From IMG/VR virus record IMGVR_UViG_3300013903_000037: 5,791 nucleotides of DNA. One strand, given 5' to 3'. Within the stretch, counting starts at the first letter, position 1. Every line of letters begins with the position of its first letter. The stretch comes from a virus (Duplodnaviria > Heunggongvirae > Uroviricota > Caudoviricetes). A model generated the notes under the pieces. The model made no database searches, was not told the origin of the DNA, and saw only the letters and a list, made by a program, of their open reading frames with translations. The translations under genes and the position numbers were made by a program. Below are positions 1-5,791 of this stretch, one piece after another.

Positions 1-13
1 AACTCTGTTATTC

Positions 14-134
14 TCTGTAGTCGTGTAATTACTCGAAGAGAGAGCGGCTAAAGCTCAATTACACTCTGCTTTCCTCGTGTAATTTCACTAAGCCTCAATA
101 CAATTCCACTTCCTACTTCTGTAGTCGTGTAATT
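14..134. repeat. Iteron-like repeat array: exact 17-bp direct repeat TCTGTAGTCGTGTAATT at 14-30 and 118-134; third copy of the 10-bp core TCGTGTAATT at 75-84; inverted copy of the 8-bp core (AATTACAC) at 57-64
   Basis: Read directly from the sequence. Direct copies are spaced about 50-54 bp apart in a stretch with no ORF on either strand. Function (origin iterons or operator array) is inference. Confidence 0.7.
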
Positions 135-180
135 GTTTTCGGTGGAAAAGCCAGAGGCGACACCGAAAGAGAATTCTGAT

Positions 181-250
181 CTTATTAATCTTATCTATCT
201 TAGTTAATCTTCTTACTTTATCTTACTTACTTTATCTACTTTATTGTTAA
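181..250. repeat. AT-rich, pyrimidine-rich low-complexity tract with 10-bp periodic tandem units (TCTTACTTTA at 211-220, TCTTACTTAC at 221-230, then TTTATCTACT)
   Basis: Read directly. Strong strand asymmetry (T/C on + strand) and no ORF. Possible DNA-unwinding or bending element next to the iteron array. Confidence 0.55.
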
Positions 251-280
251 TAATAGCTTTATAAGCTCTGTGTAGCTCTC

Positions 281-338
281 TGACGCAAGAAACCGCATTC
301 AGAAAGGGAATCACCTTAGAAAAGTGTTCTTTGCGTCA
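281..338. promoter_or_regulatory. Imperfect inverted repeat TGACGCAAGA (281-290) / TCTTTGCGTCA (328-338), arms about 37 bp apart
   Basis: Read directly. Lies upstream of the first gene. Could be paired half-sites for a DNA-binding protein or a long-range stem. Function unknown. Confidence 0.35.
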
Positions 339-463
339 TAATGTGTTTTATGAAGGATTCAGAGGTGTTTCATAACAGAAATGTATTGAGGCATATTTTT
401 CTAAGCATTACCCAAATATATACGATGACTTTGATATTCCCTTTTAAAAAGTAAGGAGGACTA

Positions 464-742
464 TTGATACAGTATTTAATAAAAAGCAAAGTAGACAGAA
501 TTCAGTGTAATGACACAGGAAAACGCATCTACGAGACACTTGCTTACCTCTATAAAGGAAAGCCAACACCGCTAAAATATAGCGATGTGTTACATCGAGC
601 AGGGTGCTCTGAAGCTGGTTTAAAATTCTGGCTGAAACAGCTATCAAACTTCGGTGTTATAGAGATTAAAGAATTATCTTTCTCTACATTCAATCTCAAA
701 AGACTTTCTAAAGAAATAGAATTCATCTATTCCACTCTCTAA
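464..742 (+). CDS. Small (92 aa) putative winged-helix/HTH DNA-binding protein, TTG start
   Basis: ORF track 464..742. Strong Shine-Dalgarno AAGGAGGA at 453-460, though spacing to the TTG at 464 is short (3-4 nt). No in-frame ATG or GTG exists near the 5' end, so TTG is the only canonical start. The central segment (KYSDVLHRAGCSEAGLKFWLKQLSNFGVIE) has the look of a helix-turn-helix with a wing. Sits next to the repeat array. Confidence 0.5.
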   Translation: MIQYLIKSKVDRIQCNDTGKRIYETLAYLYKGKPTPLKYSDVLHRAGCSEAGLKFWLKQLSNFGVIEIKELSFSTFNLKRLSKEIEFIYSTL

Positions 743-783
743 AATCTCTCTATGTAATTAAAATATAAAAGGAAAACATTATT

Positions 784-900
784 ATGATAGTAGCTATGTA
801 TTGGTTATTGTTCTTTCTCACGTTAGAAGCATATTTCGGGGTGTTTTCCTTTAAAAGAAAAGGAAAAATAAATGGCAAAAAGAAAAAACAACGTTGTTAA
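784..900 (+). CDS. Candidate 38-aa small membrane peptide (MIVAMYWLLFFLTLEAYFGVFSFKRKGKINGKKKKQRC): hydrophobic N-terminal segment plus polybasic tail
   Basis: Hand translation; not in the ORF track because it is short. ATG at 784 preceded by AAAGGA (769-774) at about 9 nt spacing. Overlaps the start of the 872..1282 gene in another frame, so it could also be a chance ORF. Confidence 0.25.
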   Translation: MIVAMYWLLFFLTLEAYFGVFSFKRKGKINGKKKKQRC

Positions 901-1282
901 GAAAATCGGTGATTCAGCTTCTCTTCTAAGTAAACCTAAATCTATTCTAAGACGTAAAGACTTTAAAGAGCTAGTTACGCTCACCAAGCAAAATAGCGCC
1001 CCTGGCGAATGGAAAACAGAGATCATAGAACATTCTCCCTCTGTGCCTTGTGGAGATGAATATATCGCATTACAAGAAATCTTATCTTCAACACCTGGCG
1101 TGTTCTGGAAACCTAAAAAAAGAAAAGAGTATATCGTTGATAGCTCTGATTTACGCAAATACCAGATTTTAGGATTTGAAGACTATAACCACTACGTCGG
1201 TTATCTCGCCACAAATGGCCTAAATAATTTAGTTCCTGAATTCCAAATTTTAGATAATGCTGATCACTATGGAGACTTTTAA
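872..1282 (+). CDS. Hypothetical protein, 136 aa, strongly basic N-terminus (MAKRKNNVVKK...RRKDFK), possibly nucleic-acid binding
   Basis: ORF track. ATG at 872 preceded by a purine-rich AAGGAA (860-865). Stop TAA at 1280-1282 lies one base before the next gene's ATG. Same strand as all other supported genes. Confidence 0.6.
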   Translation: MAKRKNNVVKKIGDSASLLSKPKSILRRKDFKELVTLTKQNSAPGEWKTEIIEHSPSVPCGDEYIALQEILSSTPGVFWKPKKRKEYIVDSSDLRKYQILGFEDYNHYVGYLATNGLNNLVPEFQILDNADHYGDF

Positions 1283-1283
1283 T

Positions 1284-1622
1284 ATGAACAAAAACACATA
1301 TGACACAATTTACTCACTAATTAATTATTATGAGGATGATTACCTCCTGCCTTTAAACCGCGCTGAACTTGAAGCATACAAAGAAAACACGCCAGCGGCA
1401 CTAAATGAGGCGTTTAAACACTGGGATTTAGCTGTGAATGCCTTTGAGCACCTCTCTAAGCGTGTAGAGATGCTCTGTAAGCGTGAAAACGCATACCTGA
1501 CAGCCGATCAGATATGGGAGCTATCAAACTGGATAGAAGATATTGAATCTGATGTTCGCTATGTAGGAGATGGACTTGTTGAACTAGCTCAACGCTTAGG
1601 CGCTACTATCACAGAAGAATAA
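1284..1622 (+). CDS. Hypothetical acidic protein, 112 aa (track ORF 1257..1622 trimmed to the ATG with the best ribosome-binding site)
   Basis: GGAGA at 1271-1275, 8 nt upstream of ATG 1284. The earlier in-frame ATGs at 1257 and 1269 lack a ribosome-binding site and overlap the previous gene. By residue counting the protein has a clear excess of Asp/Glu over Lys/Arg, and its composition suggests mostly helix. Stop TAA at 1620-1622. Confidence 0.6.
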   Translation: MNKNTYDTIYSLINYYEDDYLLPLNRAELEAYKENTPAALNEAFKHWDLAVNAFEHLSKRVEMLCKRENAYLTADQIWELSNWIEDIESDVRYVGDGLVELAQRLGATITEE

Positions 1623-1651
1623 AAAAAGCAACAAAAAAGTTGTAAAATATC

Positions 1652-1680
1652 TTGACATTTCATCTATTGTATGTTAATAT
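1652..1680 (+). promoter_or_regulatory. Near-consensus sigma70-type promoter: -35 TTGACA (1652-1657), 17-bp spacer, extended -10 TGtTAATAT (1672-1680), A/T-rich UP-like tract upstream (1621-1650)
   Basis: Read directly. Predicted transcription start around 1687-1689. Confidence 0.65.
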
Positions 1681-1686
1681 AATTAT

Positions 1687-1910
1687 ATGGGGGTGATTAT
1701 TTTTCCTTTATTGGTTCGATATTAAAAATTCTTCCTGTCATTAAAGGGGAGTAAAATCTCCGCTCCCCGCTTCTCCTCCTTAAGTAAATACTGTGTCATT
1801 ATTACCTCTTTTTTCCTTTGTTATGCATACATCTTGGAGTATGCATAACATAGGGTAATTACATAGGTATGAGTTAATAAAAGGCGGCTTTAAATGCTGC
1901 CTTTTATTTT
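1687..1910 (+). ncRNA. Putative structured non-coding transcript or leader of about 220 nt, running from the predicted start of the 1652-1680 promoter to the intrinsic terminator at 1879-1910
   Basis: No plausible ORF with a ribosome-binding site in this interval. Contains hairpin GGGGAG(1746-1751)/CTCCCC(1763-1768), a single-stranded CU-rich anti-Shine-Dalgarno-like stretch TCCTCCTTA (1774-1782), a perfect 10-bp inverted repeat TTATGCATAC(1821-1830)/GTATGCATAA(1839-1848), and the terminator hairpin. Existence of a discrete RNA is inference. Confidence 0.3.
1879..1910 (+). terminator. Intrinsic (rho-independent) terminator: stem AAAAGGCGGC / GCTGCCTTTT with 7-nt loop, followed by TTTTATTTT
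   Basis: Read directly: 6 G/C-rich pairs including one G-U, extended by A-U pairs, then a T-run. Moderate predicted strength, so it may act as a partial or regulated terminator. Confidence 0.55.
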
Positions 1911-1972
1911 GCCCGTTATGCAACTTAAAAGTTGTATTTCTTACTTTAAACAAGGTAACAAGGTTTATATAA

Positions 1973-2185
1973 ATGTTGTTCTTAAATGATAAAGAGCAAA
2001 TCATCAAGTATAAAGATGAAATGCTGAAAATTAATCCACAAATTACCGAAATGGTAGCTAAATACGCTGGGTGTTCTGTCGAGGAAGTAGAAAGATGTGT
2101 TGAAAAATATTTTTCTCCTTCTTCTCCGTCTACACCTTCCCTTAATGAATTAATCAAATTAAAAGCTAAGGAGATTACTAAATGA
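1973..2185 (+). CDS. Hypothetical protein, 70 aa
   Basis: ORF track. Weak ribosome-binding site (AAGG at about 1961-1964). Stop TGA (2183-2185) overlaps the ATG (2182-2184) of the next gene, which suggests translational coupling. Start codon uncertain; internal ATGs exist. Confidence 0.45.
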   Translation: MLFLNDKEQIIKYKDEMLKINPQITEMVAKYAGCSVEEVERCVEKYFSPSSPSTPSLNELIKLKAKEITK

Positions 2186-2550
2186 TTATTGATTTAGACA
2201 CTCTGTTTCCAGGTCGAAATCGAAAGACTTTCACAGATATTGTAAGTTATTGTACTGATCCGTTTGCCTCTGTAGAAAGCAAGGTTTTTGCTTCTCTTCC
2301 TGCTGATGTTGAGTGCGGCGACTTGATCACCAGCACTGGCGCTAAATATGAATCAGGAGATGATATCTATGTTGTTATGAGTGAATTTGTAACGGCTGGA
2401 GAAAACAAGCCTGTAGATGTGCTACGTAGCAATGCTGGGCTTGTATGCATCAAAGCTGATGCCCTGAATGCTGTAAGTGAAGCAGCAAAAACAGCATTAA
2501 TTAAAAAAGGCTTTCAGCTTGAAGGCTTTAATACGGTTTTCACTTCTTAA
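2182..2550 (+). CDS. Hypothetical protein, 122 aa, immediately upstream of the major capsid gene (positional candidate for a scaffolding, decoration or other head-associated protein)
   Basis: ORF track. Good ribosome-binding site TAAGGAG (2167-2173), 8 nt before ATG 2182. Function is assigned from position only. Confidence 0.6.
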   Translation: MIIDLDTLFPGRNRKTFTDIVSYCTDPFASVESKVFASLPADVECGDLITSTGAKYESGDDIYVVMSEFVTAGENKPVDVLRSNAGLVCIKADALNAVSEAAKTALIKKGFQLEGFNTVFTS

Positions 2551-2568
2551 TAAAAGGAATAATAATAA

Positions 2569-3597
2569 ATGATTCTAGGTAATGATTACGTTGATTTAGC
2601 TCCTTTGTTCTCTGCGCATAGCACTAGAAACTATCTACTGTCTACCCTTGACTTCACTGATCCGGTGGGCGTTAGTTCTCATAAAGTAGCTGTTTCCCAG
2701 CTTGTCGAAAGCAACGAATCTCTCTTTAACAAAGAGACAAGCCGTTTTAGTTCTGAACACAATGTTACTAAGCGTGAACAAGGTAAAGAATGGCTTATCG
2801 AAATCCCGTATTTTCTTCGTGAAGATGTGATCCGTCCTTCTGATGTTCAAGGCAAACGTAAGTCTGGCACTGATTTTCAGGAAACACTCACTGATATTTA
2901 TGCGGAATATATCGCTAAACACCACGTAGCGTATCAGCGCACTAAAGAGAGCGTGCTGGCGGCTTCTTTGTTCTCTGGCAAAACTTACACGCCTAAAACT
3001 GATGATGTGTTAATTGAGTGGAGCAAGCTGTTTAACGTATCACCAATGAAAACCACGGTGAACGCTTCCAGCACGGACACCACGAAGATTTTTAAAGAAT
3101 TTGATCAGATTGCTACTAACATTTTTGAAATCACACAAAGCCAGGCGTCAGCGGTAGAAAGAATTGTTGTTTTCTGTAAACCTGACGCCTTCTCTGCAAT
3201 TCGATTCTCTGCTGGTATGGCAAACGCATTCCAGTATGTAAGCCCACTGGAAGAGGGGAACGTTGTGTATCAGCGTCGTGACCTGCTGCCAGGAGTGACA
3301 GCGTTCACTATTCCAGGAACTAACATCGATGTTGTTAAACTGGTAGATCCGCTACATCTGGCACATATGACCGCAGACGCTGTAGCGGTTCCGAAGTTTG
3401 CTAAAGGCTCTAACGTATATCAGAACATCTACGGGGCTGCTTCCAGCACCTTTGAACTGATTAATGCCGCTCCTGCTGAGGTGTATAGCTATAGCTATGA
3501 ATCTTCTCGTGGTGATGCTGTTAACGTTGTTACAGAGAATAGCCAGATGGTTGTAAACCACGGCGTTGGCTTCTCCGTTCAAATCACTGTTAAATAA
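2569..3597 (+). CDS. Major capsid protein, 342 aa, HK97-fold, apparently of the T7 gp10-like family
   Basis: ORF track. Ribosome-binding site AAAGGA (2553-2558). Recognition is from memory of T7 gp10A (345 aa), not a search: window VVFCKPDAFSAIRF (residues about 200-213) against remembered T7 VFYCDPDSYSAIL (about 206-218); window IEIPYFLREDVIRPSDV against T7 ITIDGLLTADVLIYDIE; similar length and C-terminal character. Followed by a strong terminator, as is typical of highly expressed capsid genes. Confidence 0.7.
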   Translation: MILGNDYVDLAPLFSAHSTRNYLLSTLDFTDPVGVSSHKVAVSQLVESNESLFNKETSRFSSEHNVTKREQGKEWLIEIPYFLREDVIRPSDVQGKRKSGTDFQETLTDIYAEYIAKHHVAYQRTKESVLAASLFSGKTYTPKTDDVLIEWSKLFNVSPMKTTVNASSTDTTKIFKEFDQIATNIFEITQSQASAVERIVVFCKPDAFSAIRFSAGMANAFQYVSPLEEGNVVYQRRDLLPGVTAFTIPGTNIDVVKLVDPLHLAHMTADAVAVPKFAKGSNVYQNIYGAASSTFELINAAPAEVYSYSYESSRGDAVNVVTENSQMVVNHGVGFSVQITVK

Positions 3598-3616
3598 TAT
3601 TTTTAACGTGTAATAG

Positions 3617-3652
3617 AGGCGTGGCGTGTATTCACGCTTCGCCTTTTTTTTT
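3617..3652 (+). terminator. Strong intrinsic terminator: stem AGGCGTGGCGTG / CACGCTTCGCCT (two G/C-rich helices around a small internal loop), loop TATT, followed by a run of 9 T
   Basis: Read directly. Located 20 nt after the capsid stop codon. Confidence 0.75.
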
Positions 3653-3686
3653 ATTTATTTTTTAAATTTTGAGAGGTGATTAAAAT

Positions 3687-3887
3687 ATGGAAGTGATTTT
3701 GAAATCAAAAAATGGTGTACACGTACATTTAGATGCTAATGATTCTAGAGGCTTGTTAAATCTGAAATATCTCTGTTCTCTCCTAGATGTTCCATATGAA
3801 GGAGTAAAAGCCCGTATGTTCAGATTAAACGAGAGTATTGATCAAGCTCTACACCATTTCTTAAGCAAAGAAGGTGGTAAAAAATGA
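3687..3887 (+). CDS. Hypothetical protein, 66 aa
   Basis: ORF track. Ribosome-binding site GAGGTGA (3673-3679), 7 nt before ATG 3687. Stop TGA at 3885-3887, 19 nt before the next gene. Confidence 0.55.
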   Translation: MEVILKSKNGVHVHLDANDSRGLLNLKYLCSLLDVPYEGVKARMFRLNESIDQALHHFLSKEGGKK

Positions 3888-3906
3888 TTAATAAGGGGGA
3901 TTTTAA

Positions 3907-5791
3907 ATGTTAGAAATTAACACTTCTAAAATTAAGAACACAGTTACATTTAGTGTAGATAAAGACAGCTTGAAAAAAGCGAAAGACTCTATTACAGGCT
4001 TAAAGGAATTCGCAGAAAATATCAAGCCAGCTAAATTAAGATTTGATATTGTCACTAAAGGCTATAAGAAAGCACAAAGTGAAGTAGACAAGATTGCTCA
4101 ACAGAAAGCTAAAACAGAAAAGCAGAATCAAAGAGCACAAGCTGCCGCAGCAAGAGCACAGGCAAGGCAACAGGCACAAATAGCAGCACGCAAGGAGAAA
4201 GCAGACTTAAAACTGTTAGACGTTGGATCAAGCATTAGTGCAATGCACCGTCTCTCTGTAGCGGAACAATACAAAGCTATTGCACAGGCTAGAGAAATTG
4301 CCCTCCAATATGAAAGAGGCGCTATTAGTCTGGCACGTATGAATAGCCAGATGAAACGCCTACAACAGCAACAACGTAAGATTAATGGCAACAGAAAAGC
4401 TCAATTAGCCCCCGTTAAGGGAGGAGGATCAGGGAATGCCGCCACTATGGGCGCTCTGTTATTTGGAGGCGCTACGGCTGCTGCTGGCGTGATGGCTGTT
4501 AGTAAAGCGTCGGAGTTTGTTAGTAGCAGTTTCGCTAACGCAGACACCCAAGGGGAGCTAATCCAACGTGCAAAGCTGGGTGGTGTAGACGTTAACCAGA
4601 TGTATAATATTACAGAATGGGCGTATAAAAACGGCGTTGACTCTATGATGGGTGATCAAGGGGCTAGAAAATACCTAGATCAGATGAAAGATGTTAGGGA
4701 ACGTGCCGCAAAATCCTATAGTGAAGCTGAATTGGTGAAAGACAAGAAAACCGGAAAATCAGGGAAATGGAAAGGCGGTGATAACGCTATTAATGAACTT
4801 CTAAACATCGGAGTTATTAACAAAAGCGACCTTAAAAAATTTGCTGATAATCCAGCCGGATTAATTTCTAAGGCTGTTAATGGAATGATGAAAAAAGGGT
4901 TTTCAGATTCTCAAATTGGACAACGTTTAGAAGACCTGGGCGATGATTTGATGCTTACATCAAAATATTGGCAACGTTCCGTTAAAGATGTACAAGAAAG
5001 TATTAACCAGCAAAAAGCCTCTGGAAAATGGCTAACAGAAACACAGCAAGACTCTATTGTTAAATTCAGAGAACTAAACAGACAGCTTTCACAGCTTTCT
5101 GATGCAAGACAAGTAGCATTCGTAGACGGCTTTATGAAATCTCTTGATCCAAAAGTAACGGAAGAGTTTTTGAAAAACCTTTCTAATCTCACTCCGTATT
5201 TTACGAAGCTGGGAGAAGCTACAGGAAGTCTCTTTGAGGCCATTATGAAGATTGTAAACTGGTTTAATCGTAATGATGATAAGACAGATGCTATTCAGAA
5301 AAATTTAGGTGATGCACCGCCATTAAGCAATGACGGAATGAAACAGAATCTTTCTAATCTCGTTCCTGATAAATATAAAGGCGCTGGCACTGCAACAACT
5401 ACACCTGATAATAGTCATTCTCTCTTTAACACGATTAAGGGATTGCTTTTCGATGATAATTCTTCTGTGTCAGATGTAAAAATGTCAGTCAGCGAAGCAC
5501 CGATAACCAATCTCAAACAGGGTGCTTTAAATAATCTTGCAATGACAACTCCGGCTTATAATTTATCTCCTGTGTTTAATCTGAATCCTACATTTGAAGT
5601 GGTAACAGAGGTTCCTCTTACTATTAATTCTGACACATCAAGATTAAGCGATTATGTGGATTTTACAGCGAGAGCAAGTCGGGATAGCTTCTTGAAATCA
5701 TTAACATTAACCAGCTTATCAGGACACGAAGATTATCAGGAAATAAAAGGCGTAAGATATCATCAGACAGATAAAGAACTTGTGCAGAAAG
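3907..5791 (+). CDS. Large virion-type protein, 3'-partial (at least 628 codons, no stop before the window end): N-terminal Q/A/R/K-rich predicted coiled-coil, Gly/Ala-rich hydrophobic glycine-zipper-like segment (residues about 172-199, nt 4420-4503), then a mixed Ser/Asn/Thr-rich region. Candidate internal core, ejection or tape-measure-like protein.
   Basis: Hand translation of frame 1 from ATG 3907 gives an uninterrupted reading frame to the end of the window. Absent from the ORF track, presumably because it has no stop inside the window. Ribosome-binding site AAGGGGGA (3893-3900), 6 nt before the ATG. Composition is typical of phage tape-measure or internal virion proteins. Confidence 0.7.
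   Translation, partial: MLEINTSKIKNTVTFSVDKDSLKKAKDSITGLKEFAENIKPAKLRFDIVTKGYKKAQSEVDKIAQQKAKTEKQNQRAQAAAARAQARQQAQIAARKEKADLKLLDVGSSISAMHRLSVAEQYKAIAQAREIALQYERGAISLARMNSQMKRLQQQQRKINGNRKAQLAPVKGGGSGNAATMGALLFGGATAAAGVMAVSKASEFVSSSFANADTQGELIQRAKLGGVDVNQMYNITEWAYKNGVDSMMGDQGARKYLDQMKDVRERAAKSYSEAELVKDKKTGKSGKWKGGDNAINELLNIGVINKSDLKKFADNPAGLISKAVNGMMKKGFSDSQIGQRLEDLGDDLMLTSKYWQRSVKDVQESINQQKASGKWLTETQQDSIVKFRELNRQLSQLSDARQVAFVDGFMKSLDPKVTEEFLKNLSNLTPYFTKLGEATGSLFEAIMKIVNWFNRNDDKTDAIQKNLGDAPPLSNDGMKQNLSNLVPDKYKGAGTATTTPDNSHSLFNTIKGLLFDDNSSVSDVKMSVSEAPITNLKQGALNNLAMTTPAYNLSPVFNLNPTFEVVTEVPLTINSDTSRLSDYVDFTARASRDSFLKSLTLTSLSGHEDYQEIKGVRYHQTDKELVQK

Follow-up and report, generated by a model that had tools for sequence, protein, structure and literature searches.

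In phage lambda, the strong constitutive promoter PR' yields a terminated transcript of ~200 nucleotides (nt), the 6S RNA ending at tR', and the morphogenesis genes beyond it are reached by read-through only; in lambdoid phages the gene for the Q antiterminator normally lies just upstream of PR'. The CI RNA of P4 and the C4 RNA of P1 and P7 (Rfam C4) are constitutive RNAs that maintain quiescence by pairing with transcripts of their own element, including ribosome-binding sites (RBSs), and both are processed from the leader of the very operon that they control. IstR-1, a trans-encoded type I antitoxin RNA, is complementary to the start region of the small hydrophobic peptide gene tisB. In Vibrio cholerae, the satellite PLE encodes SviR, a trans-acting small RNA (sRNA) that is conserved in the satellite family and base-pairs with the satellite's own transcripts; its induction requires phage infection, and messenger RNAs of the helper are also targeted (Dunham, Angermeyer and Seed, bioRxiv 10.1101/2022.04.08.487710). 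Here we describe a predicted non-coding RNA gene in a 5,791-nt stretch of tailed-phage DNA (IMG/VR record IMGVR_UViG_3300013903_000037), called the window below. The RNA (1687..1910, + strand) is ~222 nt long, 205–225 nt in variants, and holds no conserved open reading frame (ORF). It is an undescribed gene, real and conserved, at a control point of a common enterobacterial island, and a limited literature search found no description of the island or of its RNA. We favour, with slightly less than even confidence, the explanation that the RNA would be made constitutively and would repress the upstream operon in trans, while its terminator would gate the capsid operon.

In outline the locus is like PR'/6S/tR': a strong predicted promoter and an intrinsic terminator lie within a few hundred nt of each other, directly 5' of morphogenesis genes that would be reached by read-through only. 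An earlier note on this sequence, made from its letters alone, had offered lambdoid late control as one reading, and membership of the lambda Q/PR'/6S system is not supported. That note had itself remarked that the window encodes no recognisable Q-like protein, and the same was found for the rest of the island: searches with the tested window proteins and the other island proteins against Pfam, PHROGs and NCBIfam detected neither Q nor another antiterminator family. Sensitive blastn of positions 1500-2300 against 50,697 phage records gave no match, nor did Rfam, and no Q-binding or pause element was recognised in the window RNA region. The island also differs from lambda in that no portal or terminase genes were found in it, and the RNA body of its relatives is long, structured and covarying, as the PR'-tR' stretch is not known to be, rather than a spacer. 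By analogy, a locus that works like a terminator-gated late operon is plausible.

The proposed part of the window RNA, that of a repressing RNA of a satellite or phage, is like that of P4 CI and P1 C4. The window RNA differs from both in having its own promoter and in having its candidate targets in the operon upstream. The C4/CI covariance model matched neither the window (cmscan, E ≤10) nor seven related loci (gathering score). Complementarity to start regions of upstream genes was significant in 6 of 16 elements including the window, and P4-style pairing with the early-operon leader, tried as a candidate, was not significant. SviR and the window RNA are both family-conserved small RNAs encoded by a satellite or satellite-like element, with self-regulation by pairing a proposal in the case of the window RNA; their hosts, satellite families and sequences are unrelated, and the window promoter looks constitutive.

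A conserved promoter-to-terminator unit without a reading frame

The RNA locus occupies a 350-nt gap that follows a 112-amino-acid (aa) gene. Its promoter (1652..1680, + strand) is of the sigma-70 type with an extended -10 element: TTGACA at 1652-1657, a 17-base-pair (bp) spacer, TG at 1672-1673 and TAATAT at 1675-1680. The earlier note had singled it out as near-consensus, and in a promoter scan it was indeed the top + strand promoter-like site of the window; the stringent pattern TTGACA-N14-TGN-TANNNT occurs once, where 200 shuffles of the window lead one to expect 0.01 occurrences. Across 17 distinct variants of the RNA from the window and its close relatives (type A, see below) the promoter is near-invariant, with 4.7% of columns variable. 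The predicted RNA starts between A1687 and G1689 and continues into a G-run; by eye, GATTAT (1696-1701) is the sole -10-like hexamer of the early transcribed region. Just 5' of the -35 element, centred at about -52, is the palindrome GCAAC-AAAAAA-GTTGTA (1628..1644, + strand). A repeat search identified it as the first of two copies of a 17-nt repeat, the second lying after the terminator, 292 bp away. This palindrome is kept in the type A variants except for one C>A change in NC101. A suspected paralogy of the RNA's promoter and 5' end with the region 5' of the 136-aa gene was rejected, as that region is the coding sequence of a small ORF.

The start itself has a family-wide look. Predicted transcripts from both strong promoters of the island family begin with A or G followed by a G-run, in the context ...TATAGGG... 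or ...TATTAGGG..., as seen at 1681-1693 in the window, at ~6776-6790 in locus L002 and in loci L012, L017, L011, L047 and L050, which span unrelated RNA types.

The earlier claim that these ~220 nt hold no credible coding sequence was borne out. No + strand ORF of at least 30 aa lies within 1687-1893, the ATG at 1687 is absent from many variants (ATATAGGGG, ATATAGGG), and indels of 1, 2, 3, 8-9 and 17 nt separate the 17 variants. The region is judged non-coding because the indels are not multiples of three, the only ATG is lost and the other small ORF is broken. A conserved, translated small ORF would speak against an RNA gene, and none survives the variant alignment: a leaderless 12-aa ORF from ATG 1687 loses its start and frame, one variant has an 8-nt deletion that disrupts a 31-aa ORF (1894..1989), which might have explained why the spacer 3' of the terminator is conserved, and a minus-strand ORF (1780..2157) contains the 17-nt indel.

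A 401-nt region with the RNA is 91-100% identical in 307 of 5,426 complete Escherichia coli genomes. Variable columns make up 8.4% of the RNA and 15-41% of third codon positions in the flanking genes, which indicates that the RNA region is under constraint. The 5' 45 nt are invariant in the type A alignment, and the nearly invariant, A/U-rich 5' block (1694..1735, + strand) is a candidate seed. Folding of the RNA gave a minimum free energy (MFE) of -66.8 kcal/mol (z = -4.9 against shuffles); the reverse strand scored nearly as well (z = -4.4), so fold energy alone cannot choose the strand. The several hairpins that the earlier note had mentioned came down to two. The first, predicted at 1746..1768 (+ strand), has the stem GGGGAGU/GCUCCCC and a 9-nt loop; its stem is invariant in all variants, and covariation is thus uninformative either way. 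The second, at 1815..1854 (+ strand), was found by fold prediction and by inverted-repeat search and has 16-nt arms, CCUUUGUUAUGCAUAC and GUAUGCAUAACAUAGG, with a second copy of UUUUCCUUU in its 5' flank (1811-1819). Between the two is a CU-rich, anti-Shine-Dalgarno-like stretch, UUCUCCUCCUUA (1771..1782, + strand), which shows TCC-repeat expansion in variants. The sole stem substitution among the type A variants, A>G at 1841, turns a U-A into a U-G pair and is tolerated on the + strand only.

Searches for an existing identity gave nothing. The window RNA had no Rfam match (cmscan, E ≤10); a weak match to STnc250, overlapping the terminator, was rejected at 18.6 bits against a gathering score of 42. 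Inversion of the DNA by the island's serine recombinase, considered in view of 31-nt inverted repeats at 453-483 and 1780-1810, was also set aside: no inverted arrangement occurred among the E. coli matches examined, and the repeats showed no evident resemblance to hix or gix sites.

Unrelated RNA types in the same slot of related islands

Related loci were taken from species-representative genomes, IMG/VR and assemblies. Their capsid proteins are 38-76% identical to that of the window and come from Klebsiella, Enterobacter, Citrobacter, Cronobacter and Serratia, among others, and gene order is kept across the islands though the small proteins are only 24-50% identical. Every related locus has a large ORF-free gap in the same slot, and each gap has a near-consensus promoter with A/G plus GGG at the predicted start and, a short way 5' of the 70-aa gene, a GC hairpin followed by a U-run. 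This architecture is shared by relatives in E. coli, Klebsiella, Citrobacter, Kluyvera, Buttiauxella, Scandinavium and Serratia, and the stringent promoter pattern recurs in the slot in the type A loci and in L017, L037, L047-49 and L050.

What fills the slot is not one RNA family. We distinguish at least five types without detectable similarity to one another, from 220 to ~920 nt in length: type A (~220 nt), in the window and close relatives; type B (~560 nt), in Buttiauxella, Kluyvera, Scandinavium, Citrobacter and IMG/VR contigs; type C (~920 nt), in E. coli; type D (~380 nt), in Klebsiella; and type E (~400 nt), in Serratia. Homology among types A, B and C was tried and rejected for want of a blastn match or a shared k-mer. 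The window RNA, the shortest version, has in common with type B only position and architecture: blastn gave no match, and at the conservation thresholds applied the two share no k-mer of 8 nt or more. Types A, B and C also had no match in the 50,697 phage records, which led us to drop the idea that the RNA was copied from a helper phage, and none in Rfam (seven related loci, gathering score). The 5,426 complete E. coli genomes include 307 with type A, 282 with type C and 14 with type B, under none of which is there an annotated feature. These counts overlap, as at least one genome holds two types: E. coli AR_0118 (NZ_CP020048.1; H39, H73) has a type A and a type B RNA at separate chromosomal places and therefore two islands of the family in one cell.

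For type B, the fold was compared among sequences. From 14 distinct sequences RNAalifold derived a consensus of 65 pairs, with standard pairs in 91.2% of cells, as against 42-51% when the partners are slid. Pairs altered on both sides number 26, against 7-12 in slid versions and 15.4 in shuffles, with none of 500 shuffles reaching 26, and covariation scores 0.308, compared with 0.08-0.12 for slid partners. The alignment used for this test is also the one that gave the structure, which favours the structure, yet the margin is large. By our own count from the table, ~15% of cells are G-U pairs; read from the opposite strand they would become A-C mismatches, which identifies the + strand as the RNA in type B. 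The stem of the type B terminator is replaced with compensation (GGGGC/GCCCC, GGCGAC/GUCGCC, GGGCUAC/GUAGCCC), and every other type is closed by a GC hairpin and U-run terminator. Because type B covaries and its terminator stem swaps are compensated, the slot encodes real structured RNAs.

These results bear on whether there is an RNA gene at all. The gap could instead be a DNA site (for packaging, an origin or operators), a chance promoter-like sequence in an AT-rich region, or a small protein gene, and it is true that both strands of the window RNA fold better than shuffles, that palindromes flank the unit and that the region is AT-rich. A promoter pattern as rarely expected as this one nevertheless recurs at the same slot in front of unrelated sequences, the G-U-tolerant covariation is strand-specific, each type ends in a + strand terminator and the indels leave no reading frame intact. 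We regard the absence of an RNA gene as extremely improbable.

Some elements of sequence recur among the types. CU-rich hairpin loops lie 45-130 nt 5' of the terminator in types B-E (CCUCCU, UCCUCA, ACCUCCUAAGA and, in Serratia, UCUCCU), with the motif absent from that loop in the type B member L017; at the corresponding place the window has CUCCUCCU, for which no stable local hairpin is predicted. Type B has conserved loops, in an invariant GCCG-UUUCCCAUA-GCGGC hairpin and in a AUUCGAAUC loop. A kissing partner for AUUCGAAUC was looked for in the loci without finding a consistent complementary site, and co-variation of the type B hairpin CAUUCAUUCC with the start region of the 136-aa homologue was not maintained across elements. 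An RfaH ops element was considered, as a partial CGGTAG was visible by eye in some type B and C RNAs; it is not conserved and is absent from the window.

The exchange of RNAs in a fixed slot allows a different view of their work, namely as decoys or sponges for an RNA or protein of helper or host, or as capsid-assembly or packaging RNAs, with the types matching different helpers. Five unrelated types in one slot between conserved genes do resemble specificity or arms-race cargo, the RNAs are large and covarying with conserved loops, and most elements lack significant targets of their own. The phage records, on the other hand, offered neither a complementarity partner nor a similar sequence, and the conserved loops have no consistent partner in the loci; we consider such a job unlikely. 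The same doubtful standing applies to the broader thought that the interchangeable structured RNAs are the island's specificity determinant, whether as an RNA-based immunity or helper-sensing switch or in direct exploitation of the helper through capsid assembly or packaging. If that were true, they would be a new class of satellite RNA and not ordinary small RNAs.

Complementarity of the RNA to upstream start regions

Three + strand genes precede the gap, encoding proteins of 92 aa (464..742), 136 aa (872..1282) and 112 aa (1284..1622). We scored ungapped complementarity of the RNA to positions -30..+19 (in one run -30..+24) of gene starts, with 100 dinucleotide shuffles of the RNA as the reference. 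Within the 5.8-kb window, the two highest scores fall in the start regions of the 92-aa gene and the 136-aa gene, whereas the other four window genes tested had z from -0.3 to 1.3. An RNAduplex scan of the whole window was uninformative, with scores inflated by long internal loops.

The top site, candidate target 1, is the RBS and start (TTG 464) of the 92-aa gene (449..478, + strand; z = 3.6-4.1). Within the CU-rich stretch, every position of TCCTCCTTA (1774-1782) is complementary to TAAGGAGGA (452-460), the duplex having an energy of -12.7 kcal/mol, and UCCUCCUUA is complementary to UAAGGAGGA, the RBS of this gene (452-460). The earlier note had described this match, which holds, and had called the stretch exposed, which is not secure: the stretch is predicted to be unpaired with a probability of 0.47, and the MFE structure pairs it with the 5' G-run. 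A further segment (1785..1798, + strand) is complementary over 14 contiguous bp, one a G-U, to 465-478, the start and first four codons of the 92-aa gene, at -15.9 kcal/mol.

At the 136-aa gene (candidate target 3), 13 of 13 positions of the RBS abutting the ATG (859-871, + strand) match 1697-1709 of the RNA (UUAUUUUUCCUUU; z = 2.7), with a duplex energy of -11.5 kcal/mol and a mean unpaired probability of 0.59. This match is inside the invariant 5' block, and variation in the target is absorbed by G-U pairs. The anti-Shine-Dalgarno role that the earlier note thought conceivable thus gained statistical support at both genes, as a prediction of pairing. The RBS of the 136-aa gene also lies in a hairpin (844-852 with 859-867) that would sequester it locally. 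Among the 136-aa homologues examined, all those preceded by a small ORF or leader have their RBS in such a hairpin with a covarying anti-Shine-Dalgarno arm, the arms being UUUUCCUUU/AAAGGAAAA, CCUC/GAGG or CACCUCG/CGAGGUG (window 844-867; L012 ~5990-6010; L015, L017), which suggests translational coupling or control.

The small ORF that overlaps the start of the 136-aa gene (784-900, 38 aa, unannotated; MIVAMYWLLFFLTLEAYFGVFSFKRKGKINGKKKKQRC) encodes one hydrophobic helix and a basic tail. Homologues of 28-41 aa are at the same place in types A-D, unannotated in RefSeq copies. With its RBS (768-776) it forms candidate target 2 (768..900, + strand), where the pairing in the window is confined to 9 A/U-rich bp at -7.3 kcal/mol (z = 0.0); the start of the small ORF scored z = 5.5 in L014, 3.3 in L044 and 3.7-3.9 in L011/L030. 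These values, the two copies of UUUUCCUUU in the window RNA that match AAAGGAAAA at the small ORF's RBS, and the retention in types A-D of a peptide with one transmembrane helix and a basic tail would fit a type I-like antitoxin that blocks translation of the small ORF, the pair stabilising the island. The likeness to IstR-1/TisB lies in complementarity between a small RNA and the start region of a gene for a small hydrophobic peptide. The differences are that, in contrast to known type I pairs, the window RNA and the small ORF are on one strand and ~900 nt apart, that the window pairing is no better than chance, and that L015, L017, L037 and L050 carry the RNA without the small ORF, whose overlap with the 136-aa gene start suggests a coupling or leader role instead. 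An antitoxin is in our view very unlikely.

Across 16 elements, a z of at least 3 was reached by 9 of the 86 start regions in the upstream module and by 1 of the 89 in the downstream capsid module, a contrast for which our own rough estimate of the Fisher p is ~0.01; the elements are related and the counts are not independent. The sites differ among elements. In the window and L012 the site is at the 92-aa homologue, in L012, L014 and L039 at the 136-aa homologue, in L014, L044 and L011 at the small hydrophobic ORF, and in L011 also at a 102-aa gene.

The terminator and access to the capsid operon

The earlier note had the RNA end at an intrinsic terminator before the structural genes, and this agrees with our analysis. 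The terminator (1876..1910, + strand) consists of an A-tract, a GGCGGC/GCUGCC stem with a 7-nt loop and then UUUUAUUUU; the full stem of 13 bp (1876-1888 with 1896-1908; -17.4 kcal/mol) runs into UUUUAUUUU. A simple terminator scanner missed it because the stem reaches into the A/U tracts. The stem is invariant in the type A variants, with one loop substitution.

The terminator is 63 nt 5' of the 70-aa gene (1973..2185), which is followed by a 122-aa gene (2182..2550) and the major capsid gene, all on the + strand. The intervening spacer (1911..1972, + strand) holds the hairpin AUGCAAC-UUAAAA-GUUGUAU (1918-1937) and the RBS of the 70-aa gene, and it is the most conserved stretch that we measured, with one of 62 columns variable (1.6%). 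Its palindrome, GCAAC-TTAAAA-GTTGTA, repeats that just 5' of the RNA promoter, and analogous post-terminator hairpins were found in types B and D. In neither the window nor L011 did the promoter scan reveal a promoter-like site in the stretch from the terminator to the 70-aa gene. Because no other promoter precedes them there, the capsid-operon genes would be expressed by read-through only, and the terminator would gate them. The RNA gene is always co-oriented with, and directly 5' of, the capsid genes, despite repeated replacement of its sequence, which argues that its promoter also feeds the capsid operon by read-through.

These features could all belong to purely cis-acting late control of the lambda PR'-tR' kind, with an antiterminator from the helper or the island and with the terminated RNA as a by-product that has no function in trans. 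Slot and co-orientation are the same in all five types, the terminator is strong, the capsid genes have no other preceding promoter, and the extreme conservation of the spacer fits a cis control region. A by-product is unlikely, however, to keep a covarying structure of 550-920 nt or an invariant 5' block of 45 nt, or to show above-chance complementarity to upstream starts, and Q-, N- or other antiterminator-like proteins and similarity to lambdoid phages were not found in the searches described above. Taken together, this makes cis control without a trans function rather unlikely, though it is the rival that we take most seriously.

Proposed role of the RNA

We therefore return to an RNA that acts in trans and whose terminator acts in cis. 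On this hypothesis, most transcripts from the near-consensus promoter would halt at the terminator and give an abundant RNA of ~220 nt. Its conserved A/U-rich and C/U-rich single-stranded stretches would pair in trans with the RBS and start regions of upstream genes, namely the 136-aa gene with its preceding small hydrophobic ORF and the 92-aa gene, and would keep their translation low while the island is quiescent. The terminator would gate the morphogenesis operon (70-aa, 122-aa and capsid genes), which would be expressed by read-through only, and the factor that releases termination may come from a helper phage. The predicted RNA has sequence attributes of trans-acting enterobacterial sRNAs: its own promoter, a U-tailed intrinsic terminator, a conserved seed with an unpaired probability of ~0.5-0.6, and target complementarity beyond chance in the window and in the family. 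Greater weight is given to the site at the 136-aa gene and small ORF, since the 13-nt match there is in the invariant 5' block and withstands variation in the target, while the 14-bp match to the 92-aa start is degraded or deleted in some alleles and variants.

Several observations weigh against this hypothesis. The commoner allele of the 92-aa gene has synonymous changes that weaken the 14-bp match and are not compensated in the RNA, and the 14-bp segment is deleted in 3 of the 17 RNA variants; this pairing is probably not essential, and the match to the start codon is possibly fortuitous. Significant complementarity was confined to six of the 16 elements, at different sites in each and in tests that are not independent, while ten had nothing significant. 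CU-rich RNAs tend to match purine-rich starts in any case, for which dinucleotide shuffles control in part, and the candidate seeds have a predicted accessibility of only ~0.5. The folding and covariance comparison across related genomes that the earlier note had suggested found covariation in type B, whereas the type A variants, a closely related set, have no compensatory stem changes. The early promoter is within a 1,557-bp segment lost from the window copy, where the proposed targets may be poorly transcribed. Finally, no pairing that would compete with the terminator stem, as an alternative antiterminator, was seen by eye, so regulated read-through would need a factor acting on RNA polymerase, or else leakage.

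One or other of these RNA genes, unannotated throughout, is present in ~11% of complete E. coli genomes, and related islands occur in many genomes of Klebsiella, Enterobacter and Citrobacter. Since the promoters are near-consensus, the RNA genes probably rank among the islands' more strongly transcribed loci. If the upstream operon is repressed and the capsid genes are gated as proposed, the RNA would be the switch for activation of the element, and control by RNA, so far known among phage satellites from P4 and PLE, would extend to a common enterobacterial element. The longer relatives would add large structured RNAs in very well studied bacteria.

The host island and the window copy

Positions 1-5726 of the window match the chromosome in 624 of the 5,426 complete E. 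coli genomes, with at least 80% present in 288. Annotated copies belong to an island of ~12 kb that adjoins tRNA-Thr (thrW), between proA and the pao/yagU region. The island contains a serine recombinase, a stretch of ~2 kb that is poor in coding sequence, small genes, a 230-aa HTH_36 protein, the window genes, a Dit-like tail protein and a tyrosine integrase. The major capsid protein (342 aa, 2569..3597) is of the lambda gpE type (Phage_cap_E, Pfam PF03864, E = 5.9e-14; phrog_29), and its gene is followed by a 66-aa gene and one for a ~611-aa protein that matches a tape-measure PHROG. No portal, terminase or protease was found among the genes of the ~12-kb island. Because capsid, tape-measure-like and Dit-like genes are present and portal and terminase were not found, the island has the look of a phage satellite equipped with a capsid protein of its own. 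For the 136-aa protein there was no family or PDB match, and its AlphaFold model was too poor to search (pLDDT 59.6). Strain CEA601S (L001 1-16000) has the island and a P22-like prophage arranged in tandem in the region of thrW.

The window copy is a deletion derivative without 1,557 bp that most relatives have (L002 6399-7955). The missing segment holds a strong early promoter, TTGACA-17-TGtAATAAT, genes of 62 and 56 aa and the 230-aa HTH_36 protein, and the junction in the window is a 21-nt direct repeat (379-399). The lost segment and its repeat junction indicate that this copy is probably defective. At the other end, the last 65 nt (5727-5791) differ from all E. coli copies, and 5721-5791 are 100% identical to positions 28662-28732 of the human faecal phage contig MT835527. 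The window ends in a mosaic junction, located at the end of the tape-measure-like gene.

Three copies of an iteron-like repeat, TCTGTAGTCGTGTAATT, were noted at 14-30, 68-84 and 118-134 of the window, followed by AT-rich ATCTTA-type repeats (window 10-134, 179-243). This region, in the ~2-kb gene-poor stretch, may be a replication origin.

A lambda or P2 cos site was looked for in the spacer after the terminator and was not there; the sole cosN-like site is inside the 122-aa gene. There, GTGCGGCGACTT (window 2313-2324) matches the lambda cohesive-end site, GGGCGGCGACCT, at 10 of 12 positions, and GTGCGGCGACCT (L011 7738-7749) matches it at 11 of 12, the position being the same in these divergent islands. 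This cosN-like site may be a packaging site.

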